64,000 nt of DNA, from the NCBI GenBank assembly GCA_051294375.1, contig CM119263.1:29910099-29974098 (forward strand), written 5' to 3'. Source of the stretch: Paraspadella gotoi. Its lineage: Eukaryota; Animalia; Chaetognatha. The notes under the pieces were generated by a model that searched no databases, was not told where the DNA came from, and was given only the letters and a program-made list of their open reading frames with translations. The position numbers were made by a program, and so were the translations under genes. Shown here piece by piece: positions 5,566 through 63,872 of the stretch (positions are counted from its first letter, which is position 1; every line of letters starts with the position of its first letter).

Positions 5566-7943
5566 TTTTTATAAACAAAATGGATCAATAGACAGAGTTG
5601 GTCGGCCTTGACCGTCTATAGGTCCATGTATTTACGATCAAGTAATTTGTGACACTGAATAAAACTATCTTGAAATATATTTGATGAAAAAAGATAACAT
5701 GAATCCACGATGCAATCAGTGAAAAACACAACATGAAATGAATTACTCATAGTGCTATCTGTGTAGAAATGCGAAGACAAAGATGCCATCCAAAAAATAT
5801 TTGAATCGATCTGTGAAAACACTTAACAGTTAACAGCCAACAGTTAAAACGAAATGCTATTCACATTAATATTAATATTAACGATTATGAGGTTTGGCGT
5901 AGCAAAGTGGCTTTAGTTAGTGGTGATGGAAAATAACTATGGAAAGTGGCAATGGGAGATGGCAAATGGCAATGGGCGCTGGAAGGCTCCGTTACGAGGG
6001 GAAAGCGTCAACAAAGTCAGTGATTAACGATTCGAAACAGAGAAGAGACAGAGAGAGAGAGAGAGGAGAGAGAGGGGAAGAGAGAGAGAGAGAGAGAGAC
6101 GAAGAGAGAGTGAGAGAGAGAGAGAGAGTAGAGAGAGATCGTGAGGGAACAAAGACAAGAGAACGAGAGAGAGAGAGGAGAGAGAGAGCGAGAGAGATGA
6201 GAAAGAGAGAAGAGACATGAGAGGAACGAGAGAGACAGAGAGCGTTGAGAATAAAAAAAGGAACCAAAGGGAGAAGTGGCCATCAGTCTTCTCAATTTGA
6301 GGCTGCCGAGTCGCTCAAGGTCTTCGCCTCGGACCGAACGCCTCTCTACTTGTTAGAGGTAATGGAAAGGGGAGGTGAGTTGCGGTGGAGAGGGGCGAGG
6401 GAAAGTGAGGATGGCGTGAGGACACATGTTTTTTAGACAAGTTTGGAAGTAAAAACATAGGTTAAAGTGAGGAAAAAGTCAGAAAAGACAGAGGTAAGAG
6501 AAAGAGAGAGAAAAGAGCAAAAAAAGACAGAGGAAAAAAGTAAAAGAGGACAGAAAAATAATTGTAAGGAAAGGATTTAAGGCAAAGAAAAGAAGCTGGA
6601 TTTTGAATGAAATGTAATTCTTGAAATGAATCTTTAGGCTTTTCACTATTATATGTAGTTTAATATTAGATTTCTGACTCTATAATAATTTGAAGATAAG
6701 TGTTTCAGTTAGTTTTAGTCCATTTCCCCTAGCTATTACGTAAAAAAACTTAAAATAGTGGTGCAGGACTTTCAAAACGAGATATGGGTGGAGAAAGAGA
6801 TCAGCAGAAGATGAGGAGAGAGACGAGAGAGAGAGAGAGAGAGAGAGAAGGAGAGAGGAGAGAGACGAGAAGAGGAGCAAGGAAGAGGGACAAGAAATAA
6901 AAGCAGAAAAAAGTAGTTTGAGAATATAACTCACCCCAAACAGCAGACCCACCAGAAGAGAAGAGAGAGAGAGAGAGAGAGAACGAGAGTGACAAGCAGA
7001 GGAGCACCCAGAAGAGAGAGAGAATAGAAATTTTTCACTGGGTAATCATCATCATCATCCTCCATTCTGACTCTCTCATTCGAACGACATCCAACAACGA
7101 TTTCAATTGAACTTCTCTTCGGCTGTCAGCAATCTCCCTCTCATCGTCTCGCAACCTCGGATGCGAATTGCCACATCAGCAAACAAGAAGTCGCGAAATC
7201 TTTGACCAAAAAATACCCTATCCGCACTTTCTCTTTTCTTTTTCTATTTTTTCTCCTATTCTTTTTCTTTCCTCTTTCTTTCTCTATCTTCTTCTCTCGC
7301 TCTCTATTTCGTTTCTTTTCCTTGTTTGCTTTTCTTTTGCAAGCTCAACTCAAAATTTCCAGTTGCCTTTTCTTTAGGATTCTCGAATTTCTTACACACA
7401 AGTAGTACTTATATTAGTTTTTTCATAAAGGAATAGCCTTTGTTAAATATATTCGATAATTTTTTTTTTTACTTTTTATAAATAGAAGTTTTGTAATTTC
7501 CTTTCTAGCTTGAGATTGAATCTACTACGTAATTAAATTTCAACTAGGGCGGATAGGGTTCAAAACTTTAGGAGTCTTGAAGTCTAAAACTCTTAGGTAA
7601 AAAAAGAAACATTTTTTAAAAAAATTCGATTTCTAATTCTTTTATTGTCATTGCTATTACAAAATTACACATATACTGGATTATAATATAAAAATGTTGT
7701 TTTCTATAATACATATCTTAACTTTTTTAAAAAGGATTCTGAAGTACGGAGAGCATAGTAAATGTTTAAAAATAAAAATTTTTAACATACAAATTCAAAC
7801 AATCAAAGTATTGTATGTTTTCTTGGTCAAAATCAAAGAAAAAAAAATTAAAAAAATTGACTGATATGATGATTATAAATAAAAAAAAGAGAGAAAATGT
7901 GCAACGTAGAATTTTGTAATTTAACATAAACGATTTTTATTAG

Positions 7944-7995
7944 AGTTGGACATGTTTCGGCTTTAGCTTATTTCAAACCTTCATACCAGCATTAG
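7944..7995 (-). ncRNA. Degenerate copy of a minimal type I hammerhead ribozyme (Penelope pLTR fragment)
   Basis: Minus strand: ctggtatgaaggtttg...taaagccGAAACATGTC caact; the CUGAUGA box is disrupted. Duplicate of the 12557 copy. Confidence 0.45.
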
Positions 7996-10900
7996 TGAAA
8001 TTCATAATAAATTTTGGATCGCAAAAAGAAGAGGTGTACAAGAGATCTGAGGGCAGATGGAGAGATGAGAAGAGGTTAACAAGTTTTTCCGTTCTCAACA
8101 CAAGTGGTGAGGTTACCAGAATAAGTGGCCCAGATGTCGAATGGACATGAGAAGGGTATGAAGACGATTGACGACAGTTGAAAAGAATGAAACACGTAAG
8201 AGAGAGAGAGGGAAGAAAGAGAAACAAAAACACAGTAGATAAAATATAATTATAAAATACGTTTTTGCAATGTACCAACAATTAGAAAAGTTTGAAAACT
8301 AACATGGAGAATATTTAAAACATTTTAAACCCTAGTAGATAAAATAAGTTAGCTAAGGGAATCAGTTACTAGGTGAAAATAATTAATGAAAGAGAAAATA
8401 GTTTTATGTTTTCAAATATTTTTACAACATCTTTGATCAAATATCGAAAAAACAGAGATTAATCCTTGTGTTAGACATGGCAACTTTTTGCAAAGCTACC
8501 TTTGATATCGATTGAAAATAAAAAAACCAAAAAAAAATTCGCCTTTTCTAATTTTATAAAATAAATAAGTTAATATAAATGAAATAGGAGTAACATATAT
8601 TTGATAAAAAATATTGCCTATTCAATATTTTTTTAAAAATTCTGAACATTTTAAAACAGAGACTGGCTTAATTCAAGCATTTTCTTAACCACCTTACCTA
8701 TCTCTCCGCCACATACTGTATTAGTATCATCTCATAGATAACAAATTAAAACTGATTTACCTAAATTTTAAAAAATATAATAAATGTTCACCAATAACAA
8801 CCAAAGGATTAAGTTCTATTATAACACAGAAATTTTCCAAAAAAGAATTGCCTAAAAAAAAAAGAATAAGGAAAATTAGTTCATATTTTCCTAAAGAGTA
8901 TAGGTTAATGTACGGTCGGGTTAATGGAAGCTTAGCGTTATCGATAGGCAGATTAAGCACGTTAGGGAACTTCGTTAGTGATTAGTTTTTGGGTGAAGAA
9001 TGTGGAAAGGTGAACAGAAAAACAACGGAAATCAAGGAAAGAGGAGAAGGAAAGAAAAAATAACAAAACCGTAGCTGAGCGGCCCATTTATTTTTTACCA
9101 CTTCTAGTCAAACGAAAGGGCCAAAAGATTAAAAACCGAGGTTTTTTTATATCTTTTTTTCAGAAACGAAATCGATTAAGCACTTGCCAAAAAAAAACTC
9201 ATAACCATTACTAGATGTCTATTCCTAAAGAAACATATAAAAAATTGTCCGGGAAAAACCCTAAAGCTTGGTCTGCAAAAACAACAATCGGAGGTAGGCT
9301 AAAAAACCTCGCCATGACTGCGTGCGAAATTAACAGACTACCTTAGTCAATAAAAATTTGAGATCGAACAGGACATTCTATACTTTGTTCTCCGTTCTTA
9401 TCCCTCACATGAAACTTAAAAACCCAAAAACACTTAACTTAACAAGGCAGTAAAAGAAACAAGGACAAAAACCAACCTACATCTTCCTCATAAACAACAA
9501 CTGCATTCTTTACAACAAACAATGCCTTACCGAACATGCTTAAAAAAGCAATAGTGTTTGTGAGACATTCGACTGTAACGTCGTTCGTCGTCGTTTTTCG
9601 TCTCCAACTCATCATGCCCTCGTTTGAACCTAGCCTATTTGGATGAAAAGTTTAAATTAAACAGCTTCTATCGTCGCGTCGTCGTCGTCGTCGTCCGTCA
9701 AGTCACAACTAACCTACTTTCGTTTTTTTTGAGTTGGTTAGAGGAATTTTCTATGCAGTTTATCACAATTTGTCGTTATATCTCAACAGTCGCTCCCCTC
9801 ACTTATCATCGTTTTTCCTTCAATCCCTTGTCAGATTGTCCGTCGTCCGTCGTCTGTATGCGGAGTCGGTCGTCCGTCGAGTCGTCCCCCGCAGTCTCTT
9901 CTTTTCCTTTGTTACGAAAGGAAAACGTCAAAAAGCGCGGTCATATTGCACGATAAAAAAAGTCAACGTGATCAACTCTCAGTCATGGTAAGATAGTCAA
10001 GATTTTTCACAAAAGACTCCCAAGCTCACGCGTGAATTTCGTTTTCATTTGTTGACCCAGAAACTGTTGAAGAGTCCAACGAAATTTACCGATCGACGAG
10101 TCAGTGAAGGAAAGGAATAAAAGTTGGAAGCTCAAAGTCACAGCCAATTGAAAAGTAAAAAAAAGCGCTAAGGAAAGCTTGAAGCCTGAAACTATAGCTG
10201 ACAGGAAAATGTCTATTTGATTAGAAAAAGTATGTCATCAAGTAATAATTAGAACAACCCCTTCATACGAAGATCGATAATGGAATGAATTTGCAAGCGG
10301 TTAAATTATAGGAGAAAGTGATTGTTTAAATTTATAAAACATTAAAAATCATTATTCTTAACATTGAGAGGACATAACGAATTTTTTAATTCACATATTT
10401 AACAATTTTATTTCTCACACAGAAAAAACTTGGTTCTCTCTTTTAAAAAAACCTATCACAAACAACTTTTAACTTTAGGATTCACTCCTCTTCTGTTTTT
10501 TTTCTTGTTTCCTTTTCTCTCTTTCTTAGTTATCGTTCTTGTTCTCTTTTTCTTCTGCTTTTTCTCTTACTTTTTTCCTGCACGTGATTTTGGTGTCTTT
10601 TCCTTTTTTTCTACATGTCTTGCTACGTACTTTTTTCTTCCCACTTATTATTTTCGCTCTTGGCTTTATCTTTCTTGTTGTCCTCTACTTTTCTTTATCT
10701 CTTTTCCTTTGATGTGTGAGTGAGGCGTGTCATTTCGCCATCTACTTCTTTTATCTTTCCCGTTTCCACGCTCTTTAATCTCACAGCAGTCCATGCCATA
10801 TGGACCGCACTTTTTTTTCTTTTTTATTTTCTTTTCTTTCTTTTTTTTTCTGTTTTATGTTTTCTTTTTTTTCTTTTCTCTCGTGTCTTCTTTTTAATGT

Positions 10901-12556
10901 ATCACCACACACCTTGTTCTAATATCAGCAGACTTCNNNNNNNNNNNNNNNNNNNNNNNNNGAGAGAGAGAGAGAGAGAGAGAGGTGAAAAAAAAGGAAC
11001 AAAGGGAGGGAAAGTTCGGCATCAGTCTTCCAATTTGAGGCTGCGAGTCGCTCAAGGTCTTCGCCGCCGACGCCTCTCTACTTGTTAGAGGTAATGGAAA
11101 GGGGGAGCTGAGGTGTTGAGGTTGAGAGGCGGCGAGGCGAAAGTGAGGATCGGGTGAAGACACCAATGTTGTTTGACAAGTTTGGAAAGTAAAACAAGGC
11201 GCTTAAAGTGAGGAAAAAAGTCTGAAAGAAAGAGGAAGAGAAAAGCAAGAGAAAAAAGAGAGAAAAGAGGGACAGAAAAAATACGTAAAAGTAGACAGAA
11301 AAAATAATTGAAGGAAAGGATTTAAGGAAAGAAAAAGAAGCTTGGATTTTGAAATGTTAATTTGAAATGATCTTTAGGTTATTCACTAGTTTAATGTAGT
11401 TTAATTATTAATATTCGACTTCATAATAATAAAATAATGTATTCAGTTAGTTTTGCTCTTATCCCTAGGCTATTACGTAAAAAACTTTAAAATGTTGGTG
11501 CAGGACGTTTCTGTTCGAATGGGTGGAAAAGAGAGAGCAGCTGAGAGAGAGAGAGACTAGAGAGAGAGAAGAGATGGAGAGAGAGAGGAGAGAGAGCCTG
11601 AAGAGAGAGGAGAGAAGAGAGAGAGAGAGAAGAGCGAGAGGAGAGAGACAGAGAGAGAAATAAAACAGCCAGAAAAAAGTAGGTGAGATAAAGTAGAAGA
11701 GAGAGAGAGAAGAGAGAGAGTAGGAGAGAGAGAGAGAGAGAGAGCAGAGAGAATGAGATTTTGTTTTTCACGATGGCTGTAATTCATCATCATCATCCTC
11801 TCATTCTCTCTCCTCATCAAACGAAATCTCCGATTTGCAATGACTCTCTCCTTCAATCTCCCTCTCAATCTCTCCAACTCTCGGATGAATTCCAATCTAG
11901 ACAATTCGCAAATATTGACCAAGAAATTCGCTCGTTTCTCTCTTTTCTTTTTCTTTCTCTTTCTTCTCTTTTCTTTTTCTATTTCTTATTCTTCTTTTTC
12001 TTTTCTTTTTAACTCAAAATTCAATTGCCTTTTCGTTTATGGCATTTTTCGAATTTTAACACAATATGTACCTTTATATTAATTATTTTATTGCATACAA
12101 GAAAGCCTTTTTTTTTCGATATTTTTTTTCTTTAAAAGTTTTGTTAATTTTCTCTCTATGTAGAAATCTACTATTGAAATTAAATTCATTAGCGGGCGGG
12201 CGCTTCAAAAACTTTTAGTCTTGAGTCACTTTTTAGGTAAAAAAAGAATTTATTTAAAAAAGTTTCGATTTTAATGCTTTTATTGTTGCTAATTAAAAAT
12301 TACAATATTTACTTAATATAATTGATAAAAATTGTGTTTTAATCAATCTTAACTTTTTTTGATGGATTCTGCCATAGGAAGCATAAAAATTTAAATAAAA
12401 AAAATTTTAACACAAGATTCAAATAATATTTATGTTTTCTGCGTCAAAATAAGAAAACAGTAATAAAATTATCGAAAATTGATGATTGATGATGATTATA
12501 AATAGTTTTTTCATGAGAGCAAAGAATTTTGAATTTAACAACGATTTTTTATTAGT

Positions 12557-12610
12557 AGTTGCGACATGTTTCGGCTTGCCTTATTTTCAAGCCTTCATCA
12601 GCATACTGAC
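12557..12610 (-). ncRNA. Minimal type I hammerhead ribozyme in a solo Penelope-like pLTR fragment
   Basis: Minus strand: CTGATGA a GGCTTG aaaataagg CAAGCC GAAAC ATGTC. Flanks resemble the PLE arm at 35.7-36.0 kb. Confidence 0.75.
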
Positions 12611-13434
12611 ATTTCAATAATAAATTTGTTGCAAAAGAAAGAGTGTGAGAGGAGAGAGAGAGACAGAGAGAGAGAGAGAGGGTAAAAGTTTTATTCAACA
12701 AATGTGTGAGACAGAATAGTTGGCATCAGATGTCGAGAACAGGTTTAAGGTGAGGACAGATTGAGTGAGTTGTTGAAAAGATAGGAAACTTGTTAAAGAG
12801 AGAGAGAGAGAGAGAGAGTTGAGAGAGAGAAAACAAAAACAACAGAGATAAATAAATAATAAAGATACATTTTTGCAATTGGTACAACACAAAGCATAAA
12901 GGAGTTTGAAAAACTTAACATTTGGAGAAAATTTTAACATTTAACTACGTGAATAAAATAAGTAATTAGCTTAAGGATAGTTAAGTGAAATGATATGAAA
13001 TATGAAAGGAAATAGTTTTTCTAGTTTTTTCATATTTTTTACACCACTATGATCAAAAATATCGAAAAACATGAATTATACTTTGTGTAGACCACTTTTG
13101 CAAGCCTACCTGAATCCTGATCTTAAAAATTAAAAAAATCCAAAAAAAAATTAATTAGCCTTTTCTATATTATAAATAAATATTAAAAAAAATTAAAATA
13201 TGGACAGTAAATATTAATAAAAATTGCCTATTCAAATTTTTTAAAAAATGCGTCTACAATTTCGTTTGAGCAGGTGCTTAATTCAAAATTTCTTAACACC
13301 CTTACTGAGTTAGTCTCCCCCTACTCTCTAGTTCTAATCAGAAACAAAGAAAACTAACTTTTCCTAAATGTTAAGAAGATAAAAATTCACAACTATACTT
13401 TGGTTAAATAAGCTAAGTTCTATTTAAAAAAGTC

Positions 13435-22661: not shown

Positions 22662-25600
22662 TTCCTTCGTGGCAAATTTCAGGGATGCATCCCCACTCGT
22701 AAACCTATGCGTCGAAGTATACAATCGTTTTTAGAATGTATTAAAATTTTAAAATATAATTAAAAAATTCCCGAAATCTTTTTTTGGTCATTTGTCTCCA
22801 ACAATTTTAGTGTTACATTTCATCAGAGTAGGGCCAATCTATATTAATAGGTTGGGCCAGAGGTTTGATTTGGCAACCTTCCCAAATGAATGAATACATT
22901 TCTAAAAAACTTTCAAAAATATTTTCACTAATCATTAAATTTTTAATATTTATTTAGAGATGAAACATCAAACTTTTTTTAAATTTTGTATTTTTAAAAG
23001 CAGATTCAGATAGCTTATAAAAAGTTGTATACACAAAGTATAATTCTAATTTTCAATATCTTTTTTCATCATCATCTTACGATGATTTTATTAGTTTTTA
23101 TTAATTTTTGGTAATAAAACATTGAAATTACATTTTTGTTTAACTTTCTAAGCTCCATCAGAATTAATTTTTCAAGAAAATTAAAATATAATATAATATA
23201 GCAATATAATAATTAAATTAGCGAATTACTCATAGTTCAAAATAACATTTCAAAAAAATATCTTAACACAATAATGAATACCGATAATGAATTTTCAATT
23301 TTACAACTATTATTATAATTATGTTTAATCCAAAAGTCTCACCTCTGCCGAATGGTCGGGCGACACATAAAGCCAATAGGTTTCTTTTGCTCCAACTTTT
23401 GGAGATCTCTCTTCAAAATGAAAACATTTTTTGTTTTTGAGAATTTCCCTGAAGTAATCAAAAATTGAGGATCATATGATGACTTTTTTGATAAAAGGTT
23501 TGTTGAAACAACAAAGCGATCGTTCTTATTTCAAAGAATATAAGGATTTAGATGTCTTTTCATACAATTGAAACATTCTTTAAAACATTCTTTGAAACAT
23601 TATACCACTTGTCCTGATTGAAAAATTGCAGTGACCTGCTATGTCCTTATTTTGTAAGAGTCATGGAGGCCTTAAACCACCAAAGCCTGTCTAAAGTCAG
23701 GGAAATAAGATAGCTTATTTATTAAATGAATGGAGAATTTTTATATTGATTGTACCAATTTCATAGAAGCCACCACACATTAGTTACAATTACCAAAACA
23801 GAAACATTCATAACGAAAATTTTTAACACGAATATTTTTTTCATTTTTAATTTTGGAACAGTCAAATTCTACTAAAAATTGGTACGTCCAATATAAAAAA
23901 ATCATTCATTTATTTAAAAAAATAATCTATCGTGTACCTGACTTTAGAAAGTCTATGGTAAGTTAAGACCTCCAGCCGTCTTACCGAATAACAACAAAAC
24001 ACCTCAACATAACTCCACAATAGGGCGCTGCAGCCCTGCAGCCCTCAAGTATTATGTCAACAACAACAGACGCCCCCCCCCACCAGGTTTCCAAAGAGAC
24101 TTGTGCCATCATTGGTTCTCCTGTTGATTCCATCTTTTGCGCCATTTCCATTCCTTTGCCGAACAGAGAATATTTGGGGACTTTTCTACCAATAACACCC
24201 GCGACGACGGGGCTGAATTCAAGAAGTAGATTTGAGTTTGTTTAATGACTATTATTTTATGTTTTGATTTGTGTTTTAACAAAAGGCTTGCCTTTTATTT
24301 GACCAAGTTTGAGGATTTAGCGTTTTTAAATAGTTTGCCTTACTGGCTTACAAATCATATTTATCTCAATTTACTTTTAAATTTTTTCCCCCTCATTTTC
24401 TTTTTTTCAAAACTTTGAAAAAAATTGTGGCTTAAAATTGTAGCTTAAAATTAGAGGCCTTGTTCACTGAATATTTCTTCACTGAATATTTCTTCACTGA
24501 ATATTTCTTCACTGATTATTTCTTCACTAAATATTTCTTCACTGAATATTACCTTTTGATTAAACGCATTATTCTGAATGTTTCAGCTTTGTAACTTGTT
24601 AAATTTATTATTTCGAAATTGTTTAGCAATTGTTTTTTTTCTTTTGTCTTAATAATTCTTTCTTTTATTAGCCCCCCTACCCCTAGGCCACTTCCTAATT
24701 CTTACCAATATTCGCCGGATGTATCACCCCGCTCTTAACCTCACCCAGTGTGAATTCCAACTCTAATCTGGATGCTGTGAAAGTCGGTCTTTCCATCGAC
24801 TTCCATCGATGTTGCGGGATAACGAATCGATTAAACAATCTCCAACATCGCAGAGCGAACTTAGCACGTTTTGTGCCGCCTGTTTAGAATCGCCGTGCAA
24901 CGCCTGTGGTTTTGGCGACCGGTATTGAAAAAAAAAGTTGTAGCAAAATGACACCAAACGTTATCAAATATTAGCTAATGTCAGTTTTGGAAATGTAATG
25001 CGTCAAATGACATATGACTTGATAAAATAACCTCCTCTCAAAAAAAAACATCAAAAGACATGCATTGAGGCAAGAGATTAATAAAACATCACCAAATCTC
25101 AAAACCCGCGGTGCCTCACTCTCTTGATTTTGAGGACTGATAAAGTAAAGATAAGATAGACTAAGATAAAGATAAGATAAGATAAGAAAGATAGATAGAT
25201 AAAGATAAGATAAGATAAGGTAAGATTACAGTTTTCCGAAAGGCAATCCCGCGGCGACGATTATAAGAATCGTCCTATGTAATCGATCTTGTAGAGATCG
25301 GTTTCTGACGAGATGAGCGAGTCGCGTTAGAGAAGTTAAGGATGGTTATCAACTGTTCGGGAGAAAGGCCAGAGGAAAGAAACGAGTGTAGTTGACTATC
25401 TGTCCGCTGGCAAAGGATGGTCACTCGCTCGTGCCTTCGTGTGGACCTTAGAATGTTTGCGTCATCGTAGGATAATCGATACAAAAAAAGTATGTCAGTT
25501 TCTATTTCAGACGAACAGATTAAGGAATACAGTTGCCTCTGGCGACTCGAGTGAACTCTGTTCATAAAGGTTAACTTCAGTTACCAAAATTAAAATTTAT

Positions 25601-28861: not shown

Positions 28862-31800
28862 TTATTCCTTTTTTTTTTCCGTTGTAATTCCGCGAGATCG
28901 TAGAACAAGATTATCGTTCCTTCGTGCAAATTTCAGGGATGCATCCCCACTCGTAAACACTAATTGCGCTCGAGCACTCTCACATCGTTTTTAGATGTAA
29001 TTAAATTTTAAAAACACTAATTAAAAAATTCCCGAAATCTTTTTTGGTCATCTGTCTCAACAATTTTAGTGTTAACATTTCATACGAGTAGAGGCCAAAT
29101 CATATATTAATGGTTGGCAGAAGGTTTGACTTTGGCAACCTTCCAATGATTGTCATCAAAACCTTTCAAAAAATATTCTACTAATCCATTAAATTTTTAA
29201 TATTAGAGACCTGAAACATCACCACACTTTTCTTTTAATTTTGTATTTTTAAAAGCAGATTCAGATAGCTTATAATAAAGTGGTATACAGCAGCAAAGTA
29301 AATTCTAGTTCAATATCTTTTTATCGATCATCTCCTACGATGATTTTATTAGTTTTTAATTAATTTTATAGGTAATAAAACATTGAAATTACATTTTTGT
29401 TTAACTTCTAAGCGTCCCATCAGAATTAATTTTCAAGAAAATTAAAATATAATATAATATAGCAATATAATAATTAAAATTAGCGAATTACTCATAGTTC
29501 AAGAATAACATTTCAAAACATATACTTAATTCTTGAACACGATAAATGAATCCGATATTGAATTTTCAATTTTACAACTATTTATATAATTATGTTTAAT
29601 CCAAAGTCTCACCCTGCCGAATGGATCGGCGAACAAAAGCCAATAGTTCTTTTGCCCAGACTTTTGGAGATCTCTCTCTCAATGAAAACATTTTTTGTTT
29701 TTGAGAATTTCCCTAGAAGTAATCAAAAAATTGAGGACTTATATGAGACTTTTTTGATAAAAGTTGTTTGATGAACAACAAAGACGATCTTCGCATTATT
29801 CAAAAGAATATAAGGAATTACGATGTCTTTTCATACATTGAAACATTCTAAAATTCTTTGAAACAATTTAAACCACTATGTCCTGATTGAAAAATTGCAG
29901 TGACCTGCTGATGTCCTTAGTTTTGTAAGAGTCTGGGAGGCCTTAAACAACCACAAGCCTGTCTTTGAAAAGCAGGGAAATAAGATACTTCATTTATAAT
30001 GAATGGAGAATTTTTATATTGATTGTACCAATTCAATAGAAGCAACCACACATTGAGTACAATTACCAAACAGAAACTTCTAACGAAAATTTTTAACACG
30101 AATTATTTTTTCATTTTTAATTTTGGAACAGTCAAATTCTACTAAAAATTGGTACGTCCCCAATATAAAAATCATTCATTTATTTAAAAAATAATCTATC
30201 GTGTACCTGACTTTTAGAAAGTCTATGGTAAGTTAAGACCTTCCAGCCGTCCTTCCGAATAACAACAAAAACCTCAACTAACTCCACAAGATAGGGCGCT
30301 GCAGCCCTGCAGCCCGTCAAGTATTATGTCAACAACAGCAAGACGCCCCCCACCAGGTTTCCAAAGAGACTTGTGCCATCATTGGTTCTCCTGTTGATTC
30401 CATCTTTTGCGCCATTTCCATTCCTTTGCCGAACAGAGAATATTTGGGGACTTTTCTACCAATAACACCGCGACGACGGGGCTGAATTCAAGAAGTAGAT
30501 TTGAGTTTTGTTTAATGACTATTATTTTATATGTTTTGATTTTAGTGTTTTAAACAAAAGGCTTGCCTTTTATTTGACCAAGTTTGAGGATTTAGCGTTT
30601 CTAAATAGTTTGCCTTACTGGCTTACAAATCCATATTATCTCAATTTACTTTTAAATTTTTCCCCCTCATTTTTCTTTTTTTCAAAAACTTTGAAAAAAA
30701 TTGTGGCTTAAAAATTGTAAGCTTAAAATTAGAGGCCTTGTTCACTGAATATTTCTTCACTGAATATTTCTTACTACAACATGAATATTAGTCCTTCACT
30801 GTATTATTCTTCACTTAAATATTTCTTCACCTGAATATTAACCTTTTTGATTAAACGCATTATTCTGAATGTTTCAGCGTTTGTAAAACTTGTTAAATTT
30901 ATTATTGTCGAAATGTTTAGCAATTGTTTTTTTTTTTTTTCTTTTGTCTTAAATTAATTTCTTTCTTTTATTAGCCCCCCTACCCCTAGGCCACTTCCTA
31001 ATCTTACCAATGATTTCACGCCGATGTATCCACCGCTCTTACCTCACCCAGTGTGAATTCCAACCCTAATCACTCTAATCTGGATGCTGTGAAAGTCGGT
31101 CTTTCCATCGATGTTGCGGATAACGAATCGATAAACAATCTCCAACATCGCGAGAGCGAACTTGGCCACGTTTTGTGCGCCTTTAGAATCGGCCGTCGGA
31201 ACGCCTATGGTTTTGGGACGGTAATTGAAAAACAAAAATGACAAAATGACACCAAACGTTATCAAAATATACTAAATGTCAGTTGTAAATGTAATGGTCA
31301 AATGACATATGATTATAAATATGATTAAAAAAAAAAACATCAAAAGACATAGCATTGAGGCAAGATAATAAAACATCAGACAATCTCAAACCCCGGGTGC
31401 ATAGATTTTGATTTTAGGACTGATAAAGTAAGATAAGATAAGATAAGATAAGATAAGATAAGATAAGATAAGATAAGTAAGATTACAGTTTCCACGAACC
31501 CGCGGCGACGATATAAGAATCCCCTATGGTATCGATCTTGTAGAGATCGTGTTTCTTTACGAGATGATCGAGTCGCGTGTAGAGAAAGTTAAGGATGGTT
31601 ATCACTTGTTCGGGAGAAAGGCCAGAGGAGAAACGAGTGTAGTTGACTATGTCGCTGCAAAGGATGGTCACTCGCTCGTGCCATTCCGTGTGGACCTTAG
31701 AATGGTGCGTCATCGTAGGATAATCGATTACAAAAAGTATTTTCAGTTTCTATTTCCAGACGAACAGATTTAAGGAATACAGTTGCCTCTGGCGACTCGA

Positions 31801-34906: not shown

Positions 34907-35814
34907 CACCTGACAAAAATGTATATCCAAAGGCTTAATAAGGTGAACGAGATATTTTGTGAGGACCCGAGGTTTCACGGCCACAATTCTTCCTTCGTAA
35001 ATCGCGGTTTTTATGAATTCGTGAGGAAGTGATTTTTCATTCGGCCGATCTCGAAAGGAAAAAGAGAAACTGTAGTAATGTAATATCACTACCCGTTGAA
35101 TATGGCTGTTGCTTCCATCAGCACCGCAAATGCGTTTTTGGCTAACACTTCGTCTCCGGACTTAATGGTCCCGGGTTCTAGCCCCGGCCTTCCGCCAGAT
35201 CCGAAGTTTCGGAAAGCAACGCTAATGAGGGAAAAATCTCCTCGATCCACTGGGAGGTGGGAACTCTTAGTGTGGGGGTGATCCACACCGTCATTCGAGA
35301 ATGGATGGATATTCACTCTTCTCTTGTCATCATTCATTTACAACTTTGCTGTCGTTAAAGTTTTAACGACAAAATTTGATGACGAATTCTCGGGAATAAT
35401 TTAAAAAAAAGTTCTATAAAGATGACGAGAACAACGGTGTATTTACTTAAGCAAGGTTTGGGAGTCCCGTCGCTGATCCAGGAAGTGCTGTAAAAAAATT
35501 GGCAGCTAAGGTTGGTTAAAAAGACATTCCTTACGAAAAAAGCCAAATATTATATTATATATATTATATATACCGCATAGAAACAAAAACATGGAAAAAT
35601 ATTAAGGTATAACTCGCTTTCATACGCATTAATAATTATTTAAATCTGTACAATAATCATCATCACTTATAGCAAATTTATCAGGACAAAAACAGTTTTA
35701 TTTGACAACGATTTAATTGACAACAATTTAGTCAGACATGTTTCGGCTCTTTCACTTAGAGCCTTCATCAGTGCTTTTGACAATCAATATTTAGTCTCTG
35801 TTAAAGTAAGTTTT

Positions 35815-35884
<70 letters not shown>

Positions 35885-37166
35885 GAGGGAGAGTTTCCAA
35901 AAAAGAATAAGGTAAGGGACAGTGGTCAGATGTGAGGACAGCTGAAGGTAAGGAGAGGGAAGAAGTAAGTCTTTGAAAAATGAAAAGAGTGAGAGAGAGA
36001 GAGAGAGAGAGAGAGCAAAAGAGAATAAAGTGCATTAAATAATCTAAATATAAACTGAAATTAAATGTTAACAATGGAAATAAATAAGTTAGTAGAATAA
36101 AGTGAAATTTGAAATAAAAAATAAGTGTGTGGGATAGATAAGTGAAGAAAAGTGAAAGTAAGTAAAAGAAAGAGCTCAAAAATGAGCTCGCCCCCCCCCT
36201 GGCCGGGCAAATGGAGCACGTTGACGATAAGGTCGGGTCATTGGCCTGTCATAGGTTGCGAGGGTATACATGTAGAGTTTGTCATGCTGGGATCCGGAAG
36301 AGATCCGCCTGGGAAAATGCCAAGTGCTACTCGTATATCCCTTTGGCCTGATAAGCCTGCGACAGCCCTCCTCTCACCTGATGGTGAGGCAGGCAGTTGC
36401 CTGTTCTGGCCTGTTTTGCTACAGGAGATACAGACTCCTCTCCCTCCTCCTGTAGCCGTCGTTTTGGGCGACGCTCGGCGCGAGGAGAGTCACGCCAAGT
36501 TGCTACAGGCTCAGGAAAGGTATCGGACGTCCATTGCCTGCTGAGAGGCCTCCGTCTGACCCGTTGAGTGGGATCGCTCTGGGCGTTCCACCACCATTTT
36601 GATAAGCGAATCATAGCTTGGAGGGAGGTCGAATCGTCCTCCATCACGGTTCAGAGAGGGTTCGAGAGCTTTGATGTAGATTGCCTCTCTAATACCTCTG
36701 GAAAACCAGTTTGGGTCATGGGACAGCACGAGACAGTTTCTCTGAACAGATGGCCAGAATTTGCCGTGTGCTCGGCAATGGCCGATAAGTAATGACCACG
36801 TGGGTCTCGATATGGTTTTGTGTGCTGCTTGAACCGATCTGTCAGAGACTTTCCTGTCTTGCCCACGTATGCTGCTGTGCAGGGTTGGTAGCCCTTCCCT
36901 GCACAGGCCGCCCAGTAGACGGCTCCTGATGTTTTCGGTCTGGGGATTTTATCTTTCGGTTTCATTTTTGAGCTCTTTCTTTTACTTACTTTCACTTTTC
37001 TTCACTTATCTATCCCTCACCACTTATTTTCTATTTCAAATTTCACTTTATTCTACTAACTTATTTATTTCCATTGTTAACATTTAATTTCAGTTTATAT
37101 TTAGATTATTTAATGCACTTTATCTCTGTTGTACATTGCTAAATGTATTGTTAAAATTTTTGATTT

Positions 37167-37227
<61 letters not shown>

Positions 37228-39668
37228 ACTTACTTTAACAGAGACTAAATATTGATTGTCAAAAGCACTGATGAAGGCTCTAAGTGAAAGAGCCGAAACA
37301 TGTCTGACTAAATTGTGTCAATTAAATCGTTGTCAAATAAAACTGTTTTTGTCCTAATACCTCAAAAAACAACGAAAAGAGAGTATATACATAAAGCAAA
37401 TTTATCAAAATTAATGCAAGAAAACAACAGGGACAAAAACCTTTTGGAGGAAGCAGTGATATCTTTATTTTTGTCCGTAATTTCTTCGGTTATTTTTGGT
37501 CTTTTTTTTTCACAATTAAAAAGAAAAAAAAATGGTGATCAAAAAATTGGAGTGAAGTAGGAGAGAGGCGTGATCGTATATCAGGGAAAGTTCAAGGGGC
37601 TTTCTCACAACTTTTGACCTCCTCACTGTCTCTCTCTTCTCTTCCTGTCTCTCTCTCCCTCTCGCTTATAAAACAATAAGAAACGTCCAACACACTTGTA
37701 GTGACTGACTACAGCCAGATAAAATATTCGTGAAGCTAGCAAAAAAACAGGTTCCAATTAAGGCCTTATTTTCTAAGAACGCCCCATTTTTTTTTAAATT
37801 CGGATTAATCTAAATTAATTTTTAGGTTTGACGATTAGATTAAAGGTTGGGGTTAAGGATTAGGATAAAGATTAGGTTGAGGATTATCGTTAGTGATTGC
37901 CTTAATGATTAGGGTTAATGATTAGGGTTAGGGATTAGGTTAGGGTTAAGGATTATGTTAGGATTAAGGATTAGGATTAGGGTTAACGCTTAGGTTAGGG
38001 TTAGTAATAAATTTTGATAAAAGATAACAATTTTTTTCTTATTTATAAATATTTTTTTATTTTTTTAAATATATTTCGACTTTCCAGTTATTAGTTTTTT
38101 TTTCAGTACAAAAAAATTTTTAAAAATAATAATCATTGTTTCAAAATAATAAAAACTTTTTTTTTTTAAATTTTAAAAAATTTAAAAATTTTAAACACAA
38201 AAAACATAATATTAAGTTTAGAATTAGGTCCAGGGATTAAGGAATTGAAATCGGGGCCTTTCGTAAAAGATGTTCCACACCTTTGCGTAACAATAGCCGA
38301 ACACAATTAACTGTTTATCATATCCCTAGTCTCACTTTTCGAATTTCAAATTCTCCTTTTCTATGATCCATTTGGGTTTATGAACCGAAACCAGAATTCT
38401 CTTTCGATATGCAGCCAGACACACGACGAGCAGAGCCAATAGGGCGATGACGCCGCCCACCACGTAGGGCCAGATCTGTTCCCAAATAGGAAGGCCGGGG
38501 GAATGTGCGGTTCTATATATCTACATAAATATAGATATAAATATAGATTAATTATTTGATTTAACGATTAATTTTATCGTCAAATCGATAAACTATTTTA
38601 TTGATTAATCGATTTTTTCTTTGAATTTTGTTTTCTTTGTCGATTTATTGATTTATGAAACATGTTTATTTTTTTTATTGACTGATTGATTAGAACCCTG
38701 ATTGATTGATTAACTCACTGATTGATTTATTAATTTGATTAATTTATTAATTTGATTGATTGATTGATTCATTGATTGATTAACTCACTGATTGATTGAT
38801 TAATTTGATTGATTGATTAATTTATCACTGATTGATTGATTAATTTTATTGATTGATTTATTTATTGATTGATTGATTAGTCGATTTAGTGATGAAAGAA
38901 TTGTGATATTTTGTTATTTATGAAGTCACCTAAATCTGCTTTAAAAAAAAAAATACTAATAATCACCAGACAATTTCGATTGCCGATGCCGCATTTCGGC
39001 ACGTCCGGCGGAACGCTGTACTCGAAGGCCGGAAACAAAAAGCCGAGATTTTTGGCCGGTACCGTCGATATGTTTGAATAATAATCGTCTTCTTCGTCGT
39101 AGTCGAACAGAAATGTGAGAGCTCGAGTGAACTTTCCCTCGGGTTTGTTCATGGCGAAAAGTCCGTATTCCACCGCAAAGTCTCCGTTTGAGCGCAGGCG
39201 AGTCTTTTGACGGAAGCCGACTTCGTTCAAGCGCTCCTCGTCGATGATGACCGAACAAGACCGATTGTGAAATGATAAGGTGGCACCGAAGGAGCCTGAG
39301 TGCGGACGGAATGCGAAAAATGTGCAAAAAAGAGTTATTTATTAATAATTTCTTAAGATTTAACGTTCTTCAAATAAGCAGCAACTGTAATTCCAATGTG
39401 TCGCGCCGCGATGATTATTTTATCTTTGAGTGAACAATTTTAAATCTCTGAATTCCTATTTAACATGTAATATATTCATCATTACCGTCATCCGTAACCC
39501 GGAGGCCGCAGCGCTCGGACAAAATCGCAATCGCGCGGAGAGAGAGCGAGACGGCTTGCGTCGTCCGATCCCACGAGGTAACGTTATACGCGGGTGATTC
39601 TGGTGTCACAGTTATGCGGAGAATTGATTCGTAGACCCGCTTCAATTTGGAGTCGTTATCTGAAGGGA

Positions 39669-39877: not shown

Positions 39878-42800
39878 TACTCACCAGCCGATTCAACCAC
39901 TTGATCCGCCTCCTCATCCTGTTCTATCCAAGGATACTCTATTTTCTCCCCGTGATCCCAAGAGATCAAATCGAAGAAGACGTACTCCCCGTAGAAGAAT
40001 TCCAGGTTGTCGGCCGCCTTGACGACTTCCCTCATCTGACGCCTGGATGCGCAAACGATGACGATGGCGAAGCGGGAGCCGACTCTCTTGTTGAAGACGT
40101 CGTTGAGGCTGTAGGTTTGCGCGGAGCAAAAATACAAGATATGATATATGAAGTCTTGTTCCCCTTTTAATTTTTTTGTATTTGAGATAATACTATGGCC
40201 CAAGAAAAAAAAAAAGAAAATTCACTCGCTCAATTTTTCCGTTCCATAGTTTATCTAAAGCAATCAGAGGAAAAAAATGTTTCCAAAAATAGCAAAACTG
40301 GTTTAGTTGACTTTTTTGAAGTGAAATATAGCTAAAACAAACAATTTAAACCGGTTTTCATCCATAAAGATATAAAAAAAACTTGTTTATATAAATATTG
40401 AGTTTATCGGGACTAAAATCCACCAAACCGTTAATATCCGCGGCCCATTGGTGCCGGAGGCAAGTCCTTTCGCCTCAAAACCCAAAGGGTCCGGGGTTCT
40501 AGCCCGGTGGTCGTCTGGCAGTTAAGAGGGACGGGCGGCGCTTAACCCGCCTGTAACATGGTGTTACAGCCTGATCCGAAGCTCAGGGACTGCTTATATT
40601 GAACGGTTCTGTCACTAACACATAACAATAATTACTGTCTCTTCATTGGTGAGCCCGACTTCCGAACACAACAGCAACAACAACACTTTCAGGCGTCATG
40701 CCTCAACCTGGCGATGCACTTTCCGCCCACAACACATCAGGTGACATGCCTCAACTTGGTGATGAACTTTCCACCAACAACAACAATTCACTGAAGAGAT
40801 GCAACAGACTTCTCCCTACGGGAGGGGGGATGTATGGTGGACTAAAATCCACCAACCGTTCATCAGCGGCCATTGGTGCCGGAGGCAAGTCATTCGCCTC
40901 CAACCCAAAGGTCCGGGGTTCTAGCCCGGTGGTCGTCTGGCAGTTAAGAGGGACGGGGTGCTTAACCCGCCTGTAACATGGTGTTACAGCCTGATCCGAA
41001 GTCAGGGACTGCTTATATTGAACGGCTTCTGTGACTAACACATAACAATAATTACTGTCTCTTCAGAGTGATTCTAAAAGCTAAGTATTTTTCATAAAAA
41101 TTTCTAAAAGTGGAAAACAAGTACCAAGAAGTCAATATCCTGTTTAAAGTTTTAATGTTTACAGACAATAAATTCTGTACATATTAAAAATAAACCTCTA
41201 CGTTCTCATCTCAAACTCAATAAAATGGAACAAATCATGTTTGAGCAAACAATGCCGGATCTGCCCACGATCATTATCAATTATCATTATCATTAATTAA
41301 TTTATTAATTAATTATTTCATTAATTAATATTAATTTTTTTTATTCGTGTCAAAAACGTTTTCCACTTTGTCTTGCCTCTCAATCACAAAACAACAATCT
41401 CGATCACAAAATTAATTAACTAATTAATTAATTTATACAAATAATTAATAAATAATTAATTACTTATTTATTAATAATTAATTAATGCAGCTTGAATTTA
41501 CATTTAATATAAAAATAAAAAAGCATAATAAAATAGTGAAATAGTTTGTTTGTTTTTTCCATTTTAACTCATTTCCACTCATTTCCTGCTCGATCACACA
41601 CTTTCCTACCCATATACAAAATTTGAAGTCAATCGCTCCATATTAACTCATTTCCATTTGAACGATTTTATCGAAACTTTATTTCCAGCTCAATCACACA
41701 CTTTCCTACCCACACACAAAATTTCATTCCAATCCATCCATAAAATGACGAGTAATTGGTGTTTTTTGCTAAAGTGGGACGGACGGAGGGACAGACAGAC
41801 AGACGGACGGACGGACATCATTTTTTTTTCCATAATTTATCATAATTCGATGTTCTGACATGATATAAGTGAATGCCCGACAAGATTGGGGGAGGCGGAC
41901 CGACGGACCGACCAAGTGAATTATAAAGCCGGAATCCGGCTAAAAAAAGGATGTCAGATTTAACTTAAAAGCAACAATAGCGGAAGGTGGCGACAGAGTA
42001 AAAAGGCTCTAAAGCCAAATGGTGATTTCACTGATACCTTTTTGTGTCATAATCACAACCTCTCTTGAGTTGGAGGATTTTTTTAACAGGACGATGTCAA
42101 TGTCAATTTATTTTTCTTTATGTTTATATTATGAAGGTTTTAAACATCATTTGACTAAAAACATAGTTTCCCGATCACCCGAGATTAATACGTTGCTTTA
42201 TTTTTAGTGGTTCCAAAAAAGCAAAACTTTATTTATTAATAAATAAATTTGTTTTTAACCTATGAAAACAGTTGTTATCTTCTGAATTTCATATGTATTT
42301 GATTTAAACTTTCTGATCAACTATTTTTCAAAATTTTGTAGTCGGGCATATCATAAGTTCACCCCGCCTATAAGTATAACACTTTCGTGACCCGGTGGCT
42401 CATTGAGTAAAGCCATCAGCTCAATCCCGACCCGATAACTACCCTGCGGGAAGCGTGAGGACGGTCGTAAGCCGCTTTGGGGGCTAGAGGGGTTAAAGAA
42501 GTTGCGGATAGTCATCTTCAGCCCACTTAGGGCCTTATCCACAATTTTTTGTAATTTTCAACAAAATAATGTTTTTAATAATATTTAAATATTGTTTAAT
42601 ACAAGTGTTTTTGTATTTCTATACTTGAAAACATTTTTAAATACTTGGATTTAGTTATACTTGACAAAAGTTAATCCTACTAACCATTTTTGTCTTATCT
42701 TTACAAAATTATAAAATCGATAGAACCGAAAAATTGCCCAAGCGAATTTTTAAATTTTTTGATCTTAAAGAATAGTTTTACATGTGTTTAAAAAAATTAA

Positions 42801-45800
42801 TAGGGCACAAGAAGTCCTTCGTCTTTTATTGTATTTATACTTCTCCCATCTGTCGGTGACGTCGCTGCTATCGATCTCGAGGTCGGTCTCGTCGACGAGA
42901 AGTTTGAGAAGATCGGCGCAATTGTTGTATTTCATTAAAGAGCCGACTCTGTGGAGCTCGCTCTGGGGAAAAAAGACGGGAGAATGAGAAAATTATGGAC
43001 TTTTAGATCGTGATTATGGGCATTTCGAAATGGAAGAATGAGTCTGGCACTTTTGCTGAATTAATGCTTATAGGTGGGGTAAACTTAGGCAATGCCCAAC
43101 TACATGCCCCCCAGATTGTAACTGCTTTCAGTAGAGGGAGGGGAGCAATCTTCAGCTAGTCCAGAGGACTGGAATCAGAAGGTTGGAATACGCTCGACAG
43201 GATTGGCTCACCAGTGTGGCTAAGTTGGGCTGAAGAGTGCTATCCGTAAATTCTCTGCTCCCTCAGCTGCCATGGAACTAGTCTTGAAGGTTTTCCAGGC
43301 CCCCAAAGCGGTTTACGGCCGTCCTCATGCTTCCCGCAGGGTAGGTACCGGGTTTGATTAAACCCGGTACCAAGTGGTCATGATGACTTTACTCAATGAG
43401 CCACCGGGTCACAACTGAAAGGTTCATGTTTATAGGCGGGGTGAACTTATGCTATGCCCGACTACATATAGAATTATCGAAATAAACAATGTGACTTTGT
43501 CATAATTTTGGAGTTTTAAAATGAAAAAATTAAGCGTCTGTAGCAAAATGGCAGAAATTAACTTACACACTCTGAAAGGGAAGAAAAAAGATCTCATTCG
43601 CAGAAATGAATATGCTTTTTACATTTTTTCAAACGAAATTTAAATTATGAAATTGGTACAACCAATATAAAAATGATCCATTCATTTAATAAATAAGCTA
43701 TCTTGCCCATGACTTTGAACAGGCTTGGTGATTTATAAGGCCTCCATCACTCTTACAAGATAATGACATAGCAGGTCCCTGCAAGCTTTCAATCAAGACT
43801 CTCTCACAGTCTCGTTTATTTACTCCCAGATTACCTGGCTTCCCTATCAATGAAGTGGTATAATATTTCAAAGAATGTTTCAATTGTATGAAAAGACCAC
43901 TCCCTTAAGTATTAGATTGGGAATACTTATTGTACTCCGCATTAGCATCAAAACAAGGAGCTGAATTTTATGAAATTGGTACAACCATATAAAAATTATC
44001 CATTTCACTTAATAATAAGCTATCTTGCCCCTGACTTTGGACAGGCTTTGGTGGTTTAAGGCCTCCATCACTCTTACAAAGATAATGACTAGCAGGTCCC
44101 GTGAAGCTTTTCAATCAAGACTCTCTCACAGTCTTGATTCTTGATGATGTAATTAACATTTAATCTCACCGAATATAAATAAAAGGCTTTCGTCCAACCA
44201 AAAAACTTCATCGTCTCATTAATAATTCTGACCAATTCCCAGTTTCCACCTCCGTGCCTAAAGCATCTTTCGCAAGCTGGATAAATTAGAAAATGACTTA
44301 TATTTCCTTATTTAAATGAATTGAAACAAGAAACGTGCAATGCAATTATAAAAAAAATAATTTAAAAAAACTCATTGCTTACCATAAAAAATATCAAAAT
44401 TTTAAATTTTGAAATCAGTTTCGAATTCCCCATGAAAAGTTGATAAAAGGAAATATAGAATATTTTATTGAGTGGGCCAAAATCAGAAAAAAAACCTGGG
44501 ATAATTAACCAATGAGTAATTCGAATTCGAATTCAAGACTAAGAAAAAAACATTTGGAATTTTGATTTTTTCTATGGCAAGTACAATCTACGATGGGCTA
44601 ATCCAGAAAATAATTTTTTTTATATTAAATGTTCATTGGTTATTTATTAAAAATTAGAATTTTAATCTACAACTTTCACTACACCTTACTACACCATACT
44701 CAATAGGCTGAAGTGATAAAAAGATTAAGCGAGTTAACAATATTTTTTTGCTGCCTCCGTATATGAAATTGGTACAACCAATATAAAAATTATCTATTCA
44801 TTTAATAAATAAGCTATCTTGCCCCTGACGTTGGACAGGCTTCGGTGGTTTAGGCCTCAATCACTCTTACAAGATAATGACATAGCAGGTCCATGCAAGC
44901 TTTCAATCAAGATTCTCTCACAGTCTCGTTTATTCACTCCTAGAGTACCTGGCTTCCCTATCAATGAAGTGGTATAATGTTTCAAAGAATGTTTCAATTG
45001 TATGAAAAGACCACTCCCTTAAGTATTAGATCGGGGAATACTATATTGTACTCCACCCAGCATCAAAATACAAGGAGCTGAATTTTATAAAATTTGTACA
45101 ACCAATATAATGTAATTTAAAAAATAATGCTTTTTTAAAATAATAAGTAATAATATCCTTATAAATTTATAAAATTTCAAATTGATTTATTTAAAATTTT
45201 AATAACAGATTCGGATTCGAGAAAAAAATAAGAAACTTTTATAAAATATGTTTTATATTATTATATAATATTTTGATGTTAAAGCTGTGAAAAAGGATAA
45301 AAATGGTTTATCATATAATAGTTTCTTCTACAGAGAGTTAAAAATTTGAGAATTTTGACCTTTTTTCCAATTTTGATACTGAAGACAAAGAAATTTGTGA
45401 TAACATATTTTATATTTTTGATCAAACTTTTTATGAGAAATCTGAATGTGTAATAAAAATTTTTAAAAATTATTTTGAAAATGAAAACTATAAATTAAAA
45501 CTATAAATATATTGTATTTTGCTTTTCTATTCCCGAAACAATATTAACAAAATATTTTTTTGTATTCAATAATCATACTATTTTGCATAAAATTATTATT
45601 ATGATTTGACTCAAATCAAATTTTTGTCTTCAAGTGCTCCACTCTATTACTCAATACTCATTACCCAAATTCCTCTGCGTTCTCATAAACTTTCGATTGT
45701 CCAACAAGGTCGATCCGTCGAATGTGTATTGAAATAGATTTTGAAAAAGCGCGAAGCTTATTAAGTTGACGTTTAGACTATCGGGACCGAAAATAGCGAC

Positions 45801-52343: not shown

Positions 52344-52655
52344 CGTTCGACAGGATGGGCTCAACTTTGTGGATAAGGCCCTAAGTGGGGCCGAAGAGTG
52401 CTCACCGCAACTTCTTTAACCCCCTCTAGCAGCCATGGAATGGGTCCTGGGCTTGGAACCAGGCTTGAGGGTTTTCCAGGCCCCCAAGGCGGCTTACGGC
52501 CGTCCTCACGCTTTCCGCAGGGTAGGTACCATTAGAAATCGACCTCGGTACCTGAGCTGGTCATGAGCTGATGGTATTACTCTATGAGCAATCGAATCAC
52601 GACTGAAGATGTCATGCTTACAGGCGGGATGAACTTATAGCAATGCCCGAATACA
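52344..52655 (-). mobile_element. TRIM family B LTR (52655-52368) plus a degenerate PBS region
   Basis: Aligns with 54176-54461; adjacent tgagcccatcctgtcgaacg matches the start of the interior at ~43200. Confidence 0.75.

Positions 52656-52783: not shown

Positions 52784-63872
<11,089 letters not shown>

Follow-up and report, generated by a model that had tools for sequence, protein, structure and literature searches.

The 64-kb window analysed here, the whole stretch of contig CM119263.1 of Paraspadella gotoi to which all coordinates refer, carries on its forward strand at 40404-41065 a repeat element of 662 bp, in the following called family A element. It is apparently intronic and lies on the strand opposite to its host gene, a receptor guanylyl cyclase with ANF-receptor, kinase-like and cyclase exons, a domain order indicative of an animal host. 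The element is a unit of two long terminal repeats (LTRs) flanking an internal region (Table 1). Its direct repeats (40410-40645 and 40839-41065) share 92.8% identity over 237 columns. The differences amount to 6 substitutions and 11 gap columns, among which several are single-base differences within short runs of the 5' LTR. Both LTRs terminate in CA. A TGG at 40647, 1 nt past the 5' LTR end, opens a primer-binding site whose first 9 bases are common to a second family of the window (family B, see below). A purine tract precedes the 3' LTR, and the flanking GAGT represents a 4-bp target duplication in the one family A copy in which it is readable (1/1). Coordinates and alignment confirm this anatomy as given in an earlier sequence-only reading of the locus. 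The same holds for its statement that no convincing coding region is present: the element is without a credible open reading frame, as the longest ATG frame comprises 92 aa with only a sub-threshold glycine-rich Pfam match. The two 46-nt repeats of the internal region are a possible candidate for a packaging signal.

The family as a whole was evaluated in contigs assembled from the public runs X1, X5 and X9 (one organism) and X10 (another organism). Contigs exit the element at exactly 40645 into unrelated flanks (245 in X1, 119 in X5 and 60 in X9) and enter it at 40833 from unrelated flanks (171, 96 and 29, respectively), whereby the flank agreement among these contigs is only 0.42-0.45. Because the contigs break at these two positions into unrelated sequence, family A is dispersed with fixed ends at hundreds of genomic sites at least. 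Run X10 yielded only five short pieces. The summed depth of the internal region reaches ~6,000x that of a nearby exon in X1 and X5, a ratio not to be read as a copy number. Contig joints that lead back into the element were not counted as tandem arrays, since reads can switch from one LTR to the other. A metagenome scan with a 19-nt hairpin returned two matches showing no likeness beyond the hairpin.

The sequence-only reading had proposed that other copies without fixed ends and 4-bp duplications would point to an ordinary tandem of tRNA-derived short interspersed elements (SINEs). In the contigs of X1, X5 and X9 the ends are fixed and such a tandem is therefore ruled out. Two tandem tRNA-SINE copies could still mimic an LTR element, given that the 5' repeat has no TG start and that a 4-base duplication can arise by chance. 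However, the fixed ends recur hundreds of times in unrelated surroundings, both the primer site and the purine tract are in position, an A-rich or simple-repeat tail is missing, and the sister family B has solo LTRs and 4-bp duplications. We consider this explanation largely refuted already and its remaining probability negligible.

The start of the 3' LTR had been read as TGT. A TGT is present at 40831, but the contigs of other copies break at 40833 (TAT), and the 5' LTR starts with TTAT. Hence the true left end of the LTR may be TA, resulting in TA...CA. The TG at 40831 and the TG start of family B argue against such an end. Five wasp LTRs of the Helenus group, which is introduced below, start with TATAAC (PMC10886601). 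Next to both ends of other family A copies the majority letters alternate between A and T over four positions, which may reflect a target preference; AT-rich flanks could give the same by chance.

Each LTR contains a tRNA-like module with A and B boxes. The boxes show one mismatch each to a box consensus, a result equalled by 7/1000 shuffles per LTR. When the 7-bp acceptor and the 5-bp T stem of the 3' LTR are demanded in addition, 0/5000 shuffles pass. Neither ARAGORN nor Rfam calls a tRNA in the element, hence the module is tRNA-like and degenerate. A frequent variant among those listed, T>C at 40514/40936, replaces the G-U of the first acceptor pair by G-C. The fold of the segment from the tRNA module to the LTR end is not unusual (z -1.1). 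The absence of TTTT from the sense strand, put forward as a telling feature, is correct for all 662 bp; among 5000 shuffles of the non-redundant 427 nt, however, 21% (dinucleotide) to 48% (mononucleotide) also have none, and the missing run is therefore no evidence on its own. Self-priming by the tRNA-like end of the LTR was rejected, its 3' end not being complementary to the primer site as judged by eye.

Following the tRNA module, each LTR is predicted to hold a type-P5 twister ribozyme, a prediction supported by shuffles and covariation. In the 5' LTR the conserved UAA, the GA, the L4 loop and the pseudoknots T1 and T2 are all present. Stem lengths are 5 bp for P4, 8 bp for P3 and 6-7 bp for P5. 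When the consensus line of Rfam twister-P1 is read in permuted order, the 5' LTR agrees with it in UAA, GC, P3, P4, the U-NNN-AA-GC loop and the GA with its T1 partner. The element order, the UAA cut site, the GA, the P4 loop, both pseudoknots, P3 and P5 resemble the known type-P5 twister (Rfam RF02684; PMC5408937). In contrast to it, the 5' strand of P2 in family A comprises three bases and a bulge is present in addition, and P1 is a 6-nt linker rather than a hairpin; moreover the Rfam P5 model has no P3 while the family A fold has one. A common variant among those listed, G>A at 40517/40939, keeps the P5 pair. Rfam reports no hammerhead on the element, and with a motif of twister type a hammerhead identity was discarded.

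A pairing descriptor detects the twister motif at 40543, whereas none of 20,000 shuffled versions of the element passes when P2 ≥ 3 is demanded. Nine of 234 fetched loci pass as well; seven of these have an Rfam twister match, one (L174) has none and one was not run through Rfam. With a looser descriptor the window contains 4 sites compared to a mean of 0.03 per window in 60 simulated windows. As a reference, phage and prokaryote collections were scanned with twister-like patterns and the resulting loci run through Rfam. Twister-P1 was assigned in 5/9 tested loci (E values between 3.5e-13 and 9e-5, none reaching the cut-off) and Twister-P5 above the cut-off in 2/3 tested phage loci. Among the phage scans for P5 twisters, one gave 0 loci, another 13 loci of which Rfam named none a twister, and a third 54 loci with two confirmed. 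The two type-P5 twisters on phage contigs (L195:77-134 and L213:77-134, both on the forward strand) have a T1 triplet pair identical to that of family A. Elsewhere in the window, at 35149-35200 (+), a short B-box-like fragment resembling the family A tRNA module precedes a stretch similar to the twister L4 loop and may be a degraded relative; the 35-nt likeness at 35149-35184 covers the B-box region only and was not counted as a family A copy.

The six nucleotides ahead of the UAA deserve a separate description. They are self-complementary in 2/2 copies of family A and 4/4 copies of family B, all of which were picked without constraining the linker. In the aligned copies of a third family (C) the linker is also self-pairing, as judged from the alignment, the pattern search for C having been constrained. 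As background, 39/1431 6-mers self-pair with at least two Watson-Crick pairs. The outer pair of the linker varies by family (G-U, C-G, A-U). In cis a P1 hairpin of family A would comprise at most 2 bp, while 6 bp are possible between two copies: the linkers 40537-42 and 40957-62 can pair along all six positions without interruption, three of the pairs being G-U. Most family A reads have G-C in place of one of these G-U pairs (T>C at 40959, among the variants listed), so that pairing is kept. P1 is dispensable for twister activity in vitro (PMC5408937). The pairing patterns suggest that P1 has been replaced by a 6-nt linker able to pair between the two LTRs.

Families B and C, two other repeat families of the same window with the twister fold, allowed a comparison. 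When a model was derived solely from the two LTRs of family A, its next six matches were copies of B and C (E between 2e-6 and 0.24); in addition it gave two self-hits on the reverse strand. The covariation alignment comprises 10 rows drawn from the three families, self-hits included; nested stems were fitted and T1/T2 lie outside the model. Across this alignment 98% of the cells are paired. For T1 pairing holds in 95.8% of cells and double changes occur at 2/3 pairs; for T2 the values are 100% of cells and 1/2 pairs. Families A and B share little LTR sequence, the best match being 23 nt over P4. Since the two nevertheless keep all stems and both pseudoknots by means of double changes, the data point to selection on the fold inside the LTRs.

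Family B is itself a miniature terminal-repeat retrotransposon (TRIM) with an LTR of ~286 bp (TG...CA), in which A and B boxes are located ahead of the P5 twister fold. It is present as two complete solo LTRs, with a 4-bp duplication in 2/2, while one copy shows a primer site, an internal part of ~110 nt, a purine tract and a truncated second LTR. Family C consists of a tandem unit of ~325 bp without LTR anatomy; its P5 twister has no P3 and its T2 is AC/GU. On a family C copy Rfam gives Twister-P5 (25.8 bits, E 4e-4, below the cut-off of 37.6), and the family looks like a twister-based non-LTR retrozyme.

Several observations weigh against an active twister in family A. The descriptor was written after the element had been seen and allows a 3-base P2. 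Rfam finds no twister on the family A element and reaches only E 0.44 on family B. A model derived from 7 natural twister cores gives the LTRs E values of 2.6 and 3.4, which are not significant, the model being too weak to decide. Conversely, when the family A model is run on 54 decoy loci, the two true P5 twisters come out on top, yet at E 0.46 and over P4 only. P2 consists of three pairs and a bulge in families A, B and C, being one base short on the 5' strand, instead of the standard four Watson-Crick pairs; a change in P2 length has been suggested to disturb the active site (PMC5408937). Nested fold prediction, which ignores pseudoknots, assigns P2 a probability of 0 and P4 of ~0.2 with a competing stem dominating. 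Moreover the 3' LTR twister of this copy is without one T2 base near 41001, and the covariation draws on three families rather than many.

The silence of Rfam and the weak scores of the natural-twister model would also be expected if the structured segment were no twister at all but a SINE body, a packaging signal or the like with a chance likeness. Against this stand the shuffles, none of which passed, the excess of sites over the simulated windows and the naming of the family C homologue as Twister-P5. A chance likeness thus appears very improbable. Alternatively, the element could be an ordinary Helenus-type TRIM, into whose LTR a tRNA-headed SINE or a twister retrozyme once inserted, the ribozyme now being inactive and the promoter alone being of importance. 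Insertion of a SINE is the proposed origin of Helenus (PMC10886601). The non-standard P2, the vestigial P1 and the missing Rfam match would fit, and the non-LTR tandem family C, carrying the motif in the same window, could have been the donor. However, the conservation of stems and both pseudoknots by double changes in A and B, which have little LTR sequence in common, is not in line with an idle ribozyme, and we regard this explanation as unlikely.

Taken together, we consider it slightly more likely than not that family A is a dispersed, high-copy, non-coding animal LTR retrotransposon of the TRIM type, in which each LTR provides a tRNA-like, likely RNA polymerase III (Pol III) promoter followed by a predicted twister that would cut the transcript to unit length for copying, likely driven by a Gypsy element. 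The earlier reading as a non-autonomous LTR element with a tRNA-derived promoter of Pol III type and a Gypsy partner is thereby supported, the partner as likely. The twister fold had been missed, and this changes the likely mechanism. Moreover the tRNA promoter is not new, because Helenus already is a tRNA-bearing LTR type.

According to the proposed scheme Pol III would start near 40440 and continue as far as the T run in the flank (41088). The two linkers would then pair and supply P1 in trans. As P1 would originate from pairing between the LTR linkers, a transcript containing both LTRs would be required for cleavage to be favoured. Cleavage at 40543/44 and 40963/64 would release an RNA of 420 nt (40544-40963) without terminal repeat, which a host RNA ligase could close. 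Holding one ribozyme and no P1 partner, the circle would be comparatively stable. Ligation of animal retrozyme RNA by RtcB has been achieved in vitro (PMC7229834). Finally tRNA-Trp would prime at the primer site, and the reverse transcriptase and integrase of a Gypsy element would rebuild both LTRs and integrate the product with a 4-bp duplication. The scheme is modelled on plant retrozymes, with a twister for the hammerhead and an internal Pol III promoter added.

A circle is likely but not required, because a single cut keeps ~100 nt of terminal repeat and thus permits ordinary strand transfer. Hence linear RNA may serve as the template for copying even with an active ribozyme: cleavage in one LTR only would leave ~100 nt of terminal repeat, and the twister would trim the RNA or replace a terminator without any circle. 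Products 40440-40963 and 40544-41065 would each retain a terminal repeat, the short P2 and the competing fold suggest incomplete cutting, and twisters trim the 5' ends of Perere-3 RNA (PMC8501958). In contrast, identical ribozymes in both LTRs together with linker pairing between the LTRs favour double cutting, and plant LTR retrozymes accumulate as circles (PMC4918200). Copying from linear RNA seems rather unlikely to us, although it is the most serious competitor of the circle.

Among known systems Helenus (TRIMp3; Kojima 2024, PMC10886601) is the closest in anatomy. It comprises TRIMs with tRNA-derived sequence in their LTRs from fungi, six animal phyla and one lycophyte, which in animals generate 4-bp duplications, have inferred Gypsy partners and measure 311-1263 bp; Pol III transcription is unproven there too. 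The sequence-only reading had assigned 5S to Helenus and tRNA to Ajax. The assignment is reversed, Ajax being the 5S type, found in nemerteans (PMC10886601). Family A agrees with Helenus in being short and non-coding, in the tRNA-like A/B boxes within the LTRs, primer site, purine tract, 4-bp duplication and a length within the range, and two wasp Helenus families likewise use a tRNA-Trp primer site. It differs in that the tRNA module is located early in the LTR and followed by the twister fold, where many Helenus LTRs have a T-rich run. By eye no animal Helenus consensus LTR resembles the family A LTR, and three exact motifs gave 0 matches in the accessible supplement of PMC10886601, its fungal sequences being searched by motif only. 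The accessible text of that paper mentions a ribozyme once, in the title of a reference, and reports none for Helenus. In its Data S1, Helenus-2_SyJa-LTR and Helenus-2_SyUm-LTR appear by eye to contain a complete type III hammerhead with complementary loops after the B box, and have a tRNA-Trp primer site; the accessible text does not mention these hammerheads.

Plant LTR retrozymes carry a type III hammerhead and form an RNA of 600-800 nt, and in their model a circle resolves the loss of the terminal repeat (Cervera et al. 2016, PMC4918200). Family A shares with them the non-coding nature, one ribozyme (here predicted) per LTR, the primer site, purine tract, 4-bp duplication and a likely Gypsy partner; solo LTRs are found among plant LTR retrozymes and in family B. 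Unlike them it would use a twister instead of a type III hammerhead, resides in an animal, has a predicted RNA of 420 nt and shows a tRNA-like promoter, none being noted in the available part of PMC4918200. LTR retrozymes are placed mainly in plants and with hammerheads (PMC7229834, PMC7761336, bioRxiv 10.64898/2026.07.22.740005), while animal retrozymes are stated to lack LTR, primer-binding site and polypurine tract (PMC7229834, PMC7761336). As small ribozyme-bearing animal repeats, the animal non-LTR retrozymes and the Schistosoma SINEs with promoter and hammerhead are similar to family A (PMC7229834, PMC6765202, bioRxiv 10.64898/2026.07.22.740005). Some of these repeats need dimers to cut, and circles are closed by RtcB in vitro (same sources). 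Unlike family A they are tandem, hammerhead-based and tied to Penelope-like elements, with no LTR, primer site or purine tract. Perere-3 of Schistosoma mansoni, an RTE element, also combines a twister, including variants without P1, with a retrotransposon, but is autonomous, non-LTR and equipped with a single ribozyme at its 5' end (PMC8501958).

A predicted twister and a tRNA-like, likely promoter in each LTR would join two known designs, those of Helenus and the plant retrozymes. The element falls under the definition of Helenus and likely works like an LTR retrozyme without being a member as defined. In the accessible literature, which leaves most subscription papers out of reach, we found neither an LTR element with a twister nor a Helenus element with a ribozyme; the available parts of PMC6765202, PMC8501958 and PMC13570524 contain no case of a twister in an LTR element. 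Tentatively, and short of calling it probable, we propose a class of animal LTR retrozymes with their own tRNA-type Pol III promoter, in which self-complementary P1 linkers gate a dimeric twister such that only full-length transcripts are cut and the small RNA is circularised and copied by Gypsy enzymes. The class would comprise at least two LTR families in this genome, and two wasp Helenus families seem to follow the same design with a hammerhead. If true, LTR retrozymes would extend beyond plants and hammerheads and animal retrozymes would include forms with LTRs, the twister would gain a role in LTR retrotransposition, and a possible answer would arise to the question how TRIMs transcribed by Pol III set the ends of their RNA when a terminator is missing. 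As two families already seem to hold a ribozyme, the published Helenus families are worth re-scanning.

Table 1. Coordinates of family A features and of the family B and C copies in the window.
Feature	Position	Strand	Remarks
Left target-site duplication GAGT	40400..40403	+	
5' LTR	40404..40645	+	TTAT start, CA end; repeat alignment; contigs exit at 40645
tRNA-like module, 5' LTR	40440..40515	+	A box 40449-40460, B box 40495-40505; putative Pol III promoter
Type-P5 twister fold (predicted), 5' LTR	40517..40594	+	directly after tRNA module
P5, 5' LTR	40517-22/40589-94	+	
P2, 5' LTR	40526,28,29/40546-48	+	
Conserved GA, 5' LTR	40530-31	+	
T1 pseudoknot, 5' LTR	40532-34/40576-78	+	
Self-complementary linker, 5' LTR	40537-42	+	
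Predicted cut, 5' LTR	between U40543 and A40544	+	
T2 pseudoknot, 5' LTR	40549-50/40581-82	+	
P3, 5' LTR	40551-69	+	
P4, 5' LTR	40570-74/40583-87	+	
Internal region, non-coding	40646..40832	+	two 46-nt repeats (40689-40734, 40737-40782), 48 nt apart, amid CAA-rich spacers
Primer-binding site, tRNA-Trp type	40647..40659	+	12 of first 13 bases match; by-eye comparison with Fig. S2 of PMC10886601
Polypurine tract	40820..40830	+	adjoins TGT at 40831
3' LTR	40831..41065	+	start TG (40831) or TA (40833); repeat alignment; contigs enter at 40833
tRNA-like module, 3' LTR	40866..40937	+	A box 40874-40885, B box 40917-40927; 7-bp acceptor, 5-bp T stem
Second twister fold (predicted), 3' LTR	40939..41013	+	linker 40957-40962; predicted cut between 40963 and 40964
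Right target-site duplication GAGT	41066..41069	+	
First T run (≥4) past the element	41088..41092	+	likely Pol III stop for this copy
Family B copies	54176-54461, 52368-52655, 43064-43466	-	
Family B copies	42337-42543, 62833-63080	+	
Family C copies	43645-44142, 44762-45110, 30146-30241	-	
Family C copies	23611-23768, 29880-30041	+	

The receptor guanylyl cyclase gene around the family A element spans 23984-47453 on the reverse strand and is divergent. Its last cyclase exon occurs twice, within a 4-kb duplication (22662-26596/28917-32774). Word-based protein searches yielded no match, and a HMMER search returned distant cyclases only (best value 57%), some of whose names refer to krill, whitefly and nematodes. 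A C2-domain gene of synaptotagmin-like type has its exons at 52787-63286 on the reverse strand, with family B LTRs in the introns. At 35679-37359 two pairs of inverted repeats (35679-35872/37168-37359 and 36016-36185/36962-37131) surround a reading frame (36514-36948, reverse strand) which has no Pfam match and appears to resemble the end of a Penelope-like element. Finally, 6228-8774 and 10968-13377 form a 2.5-kb duplication with ~72% identity.

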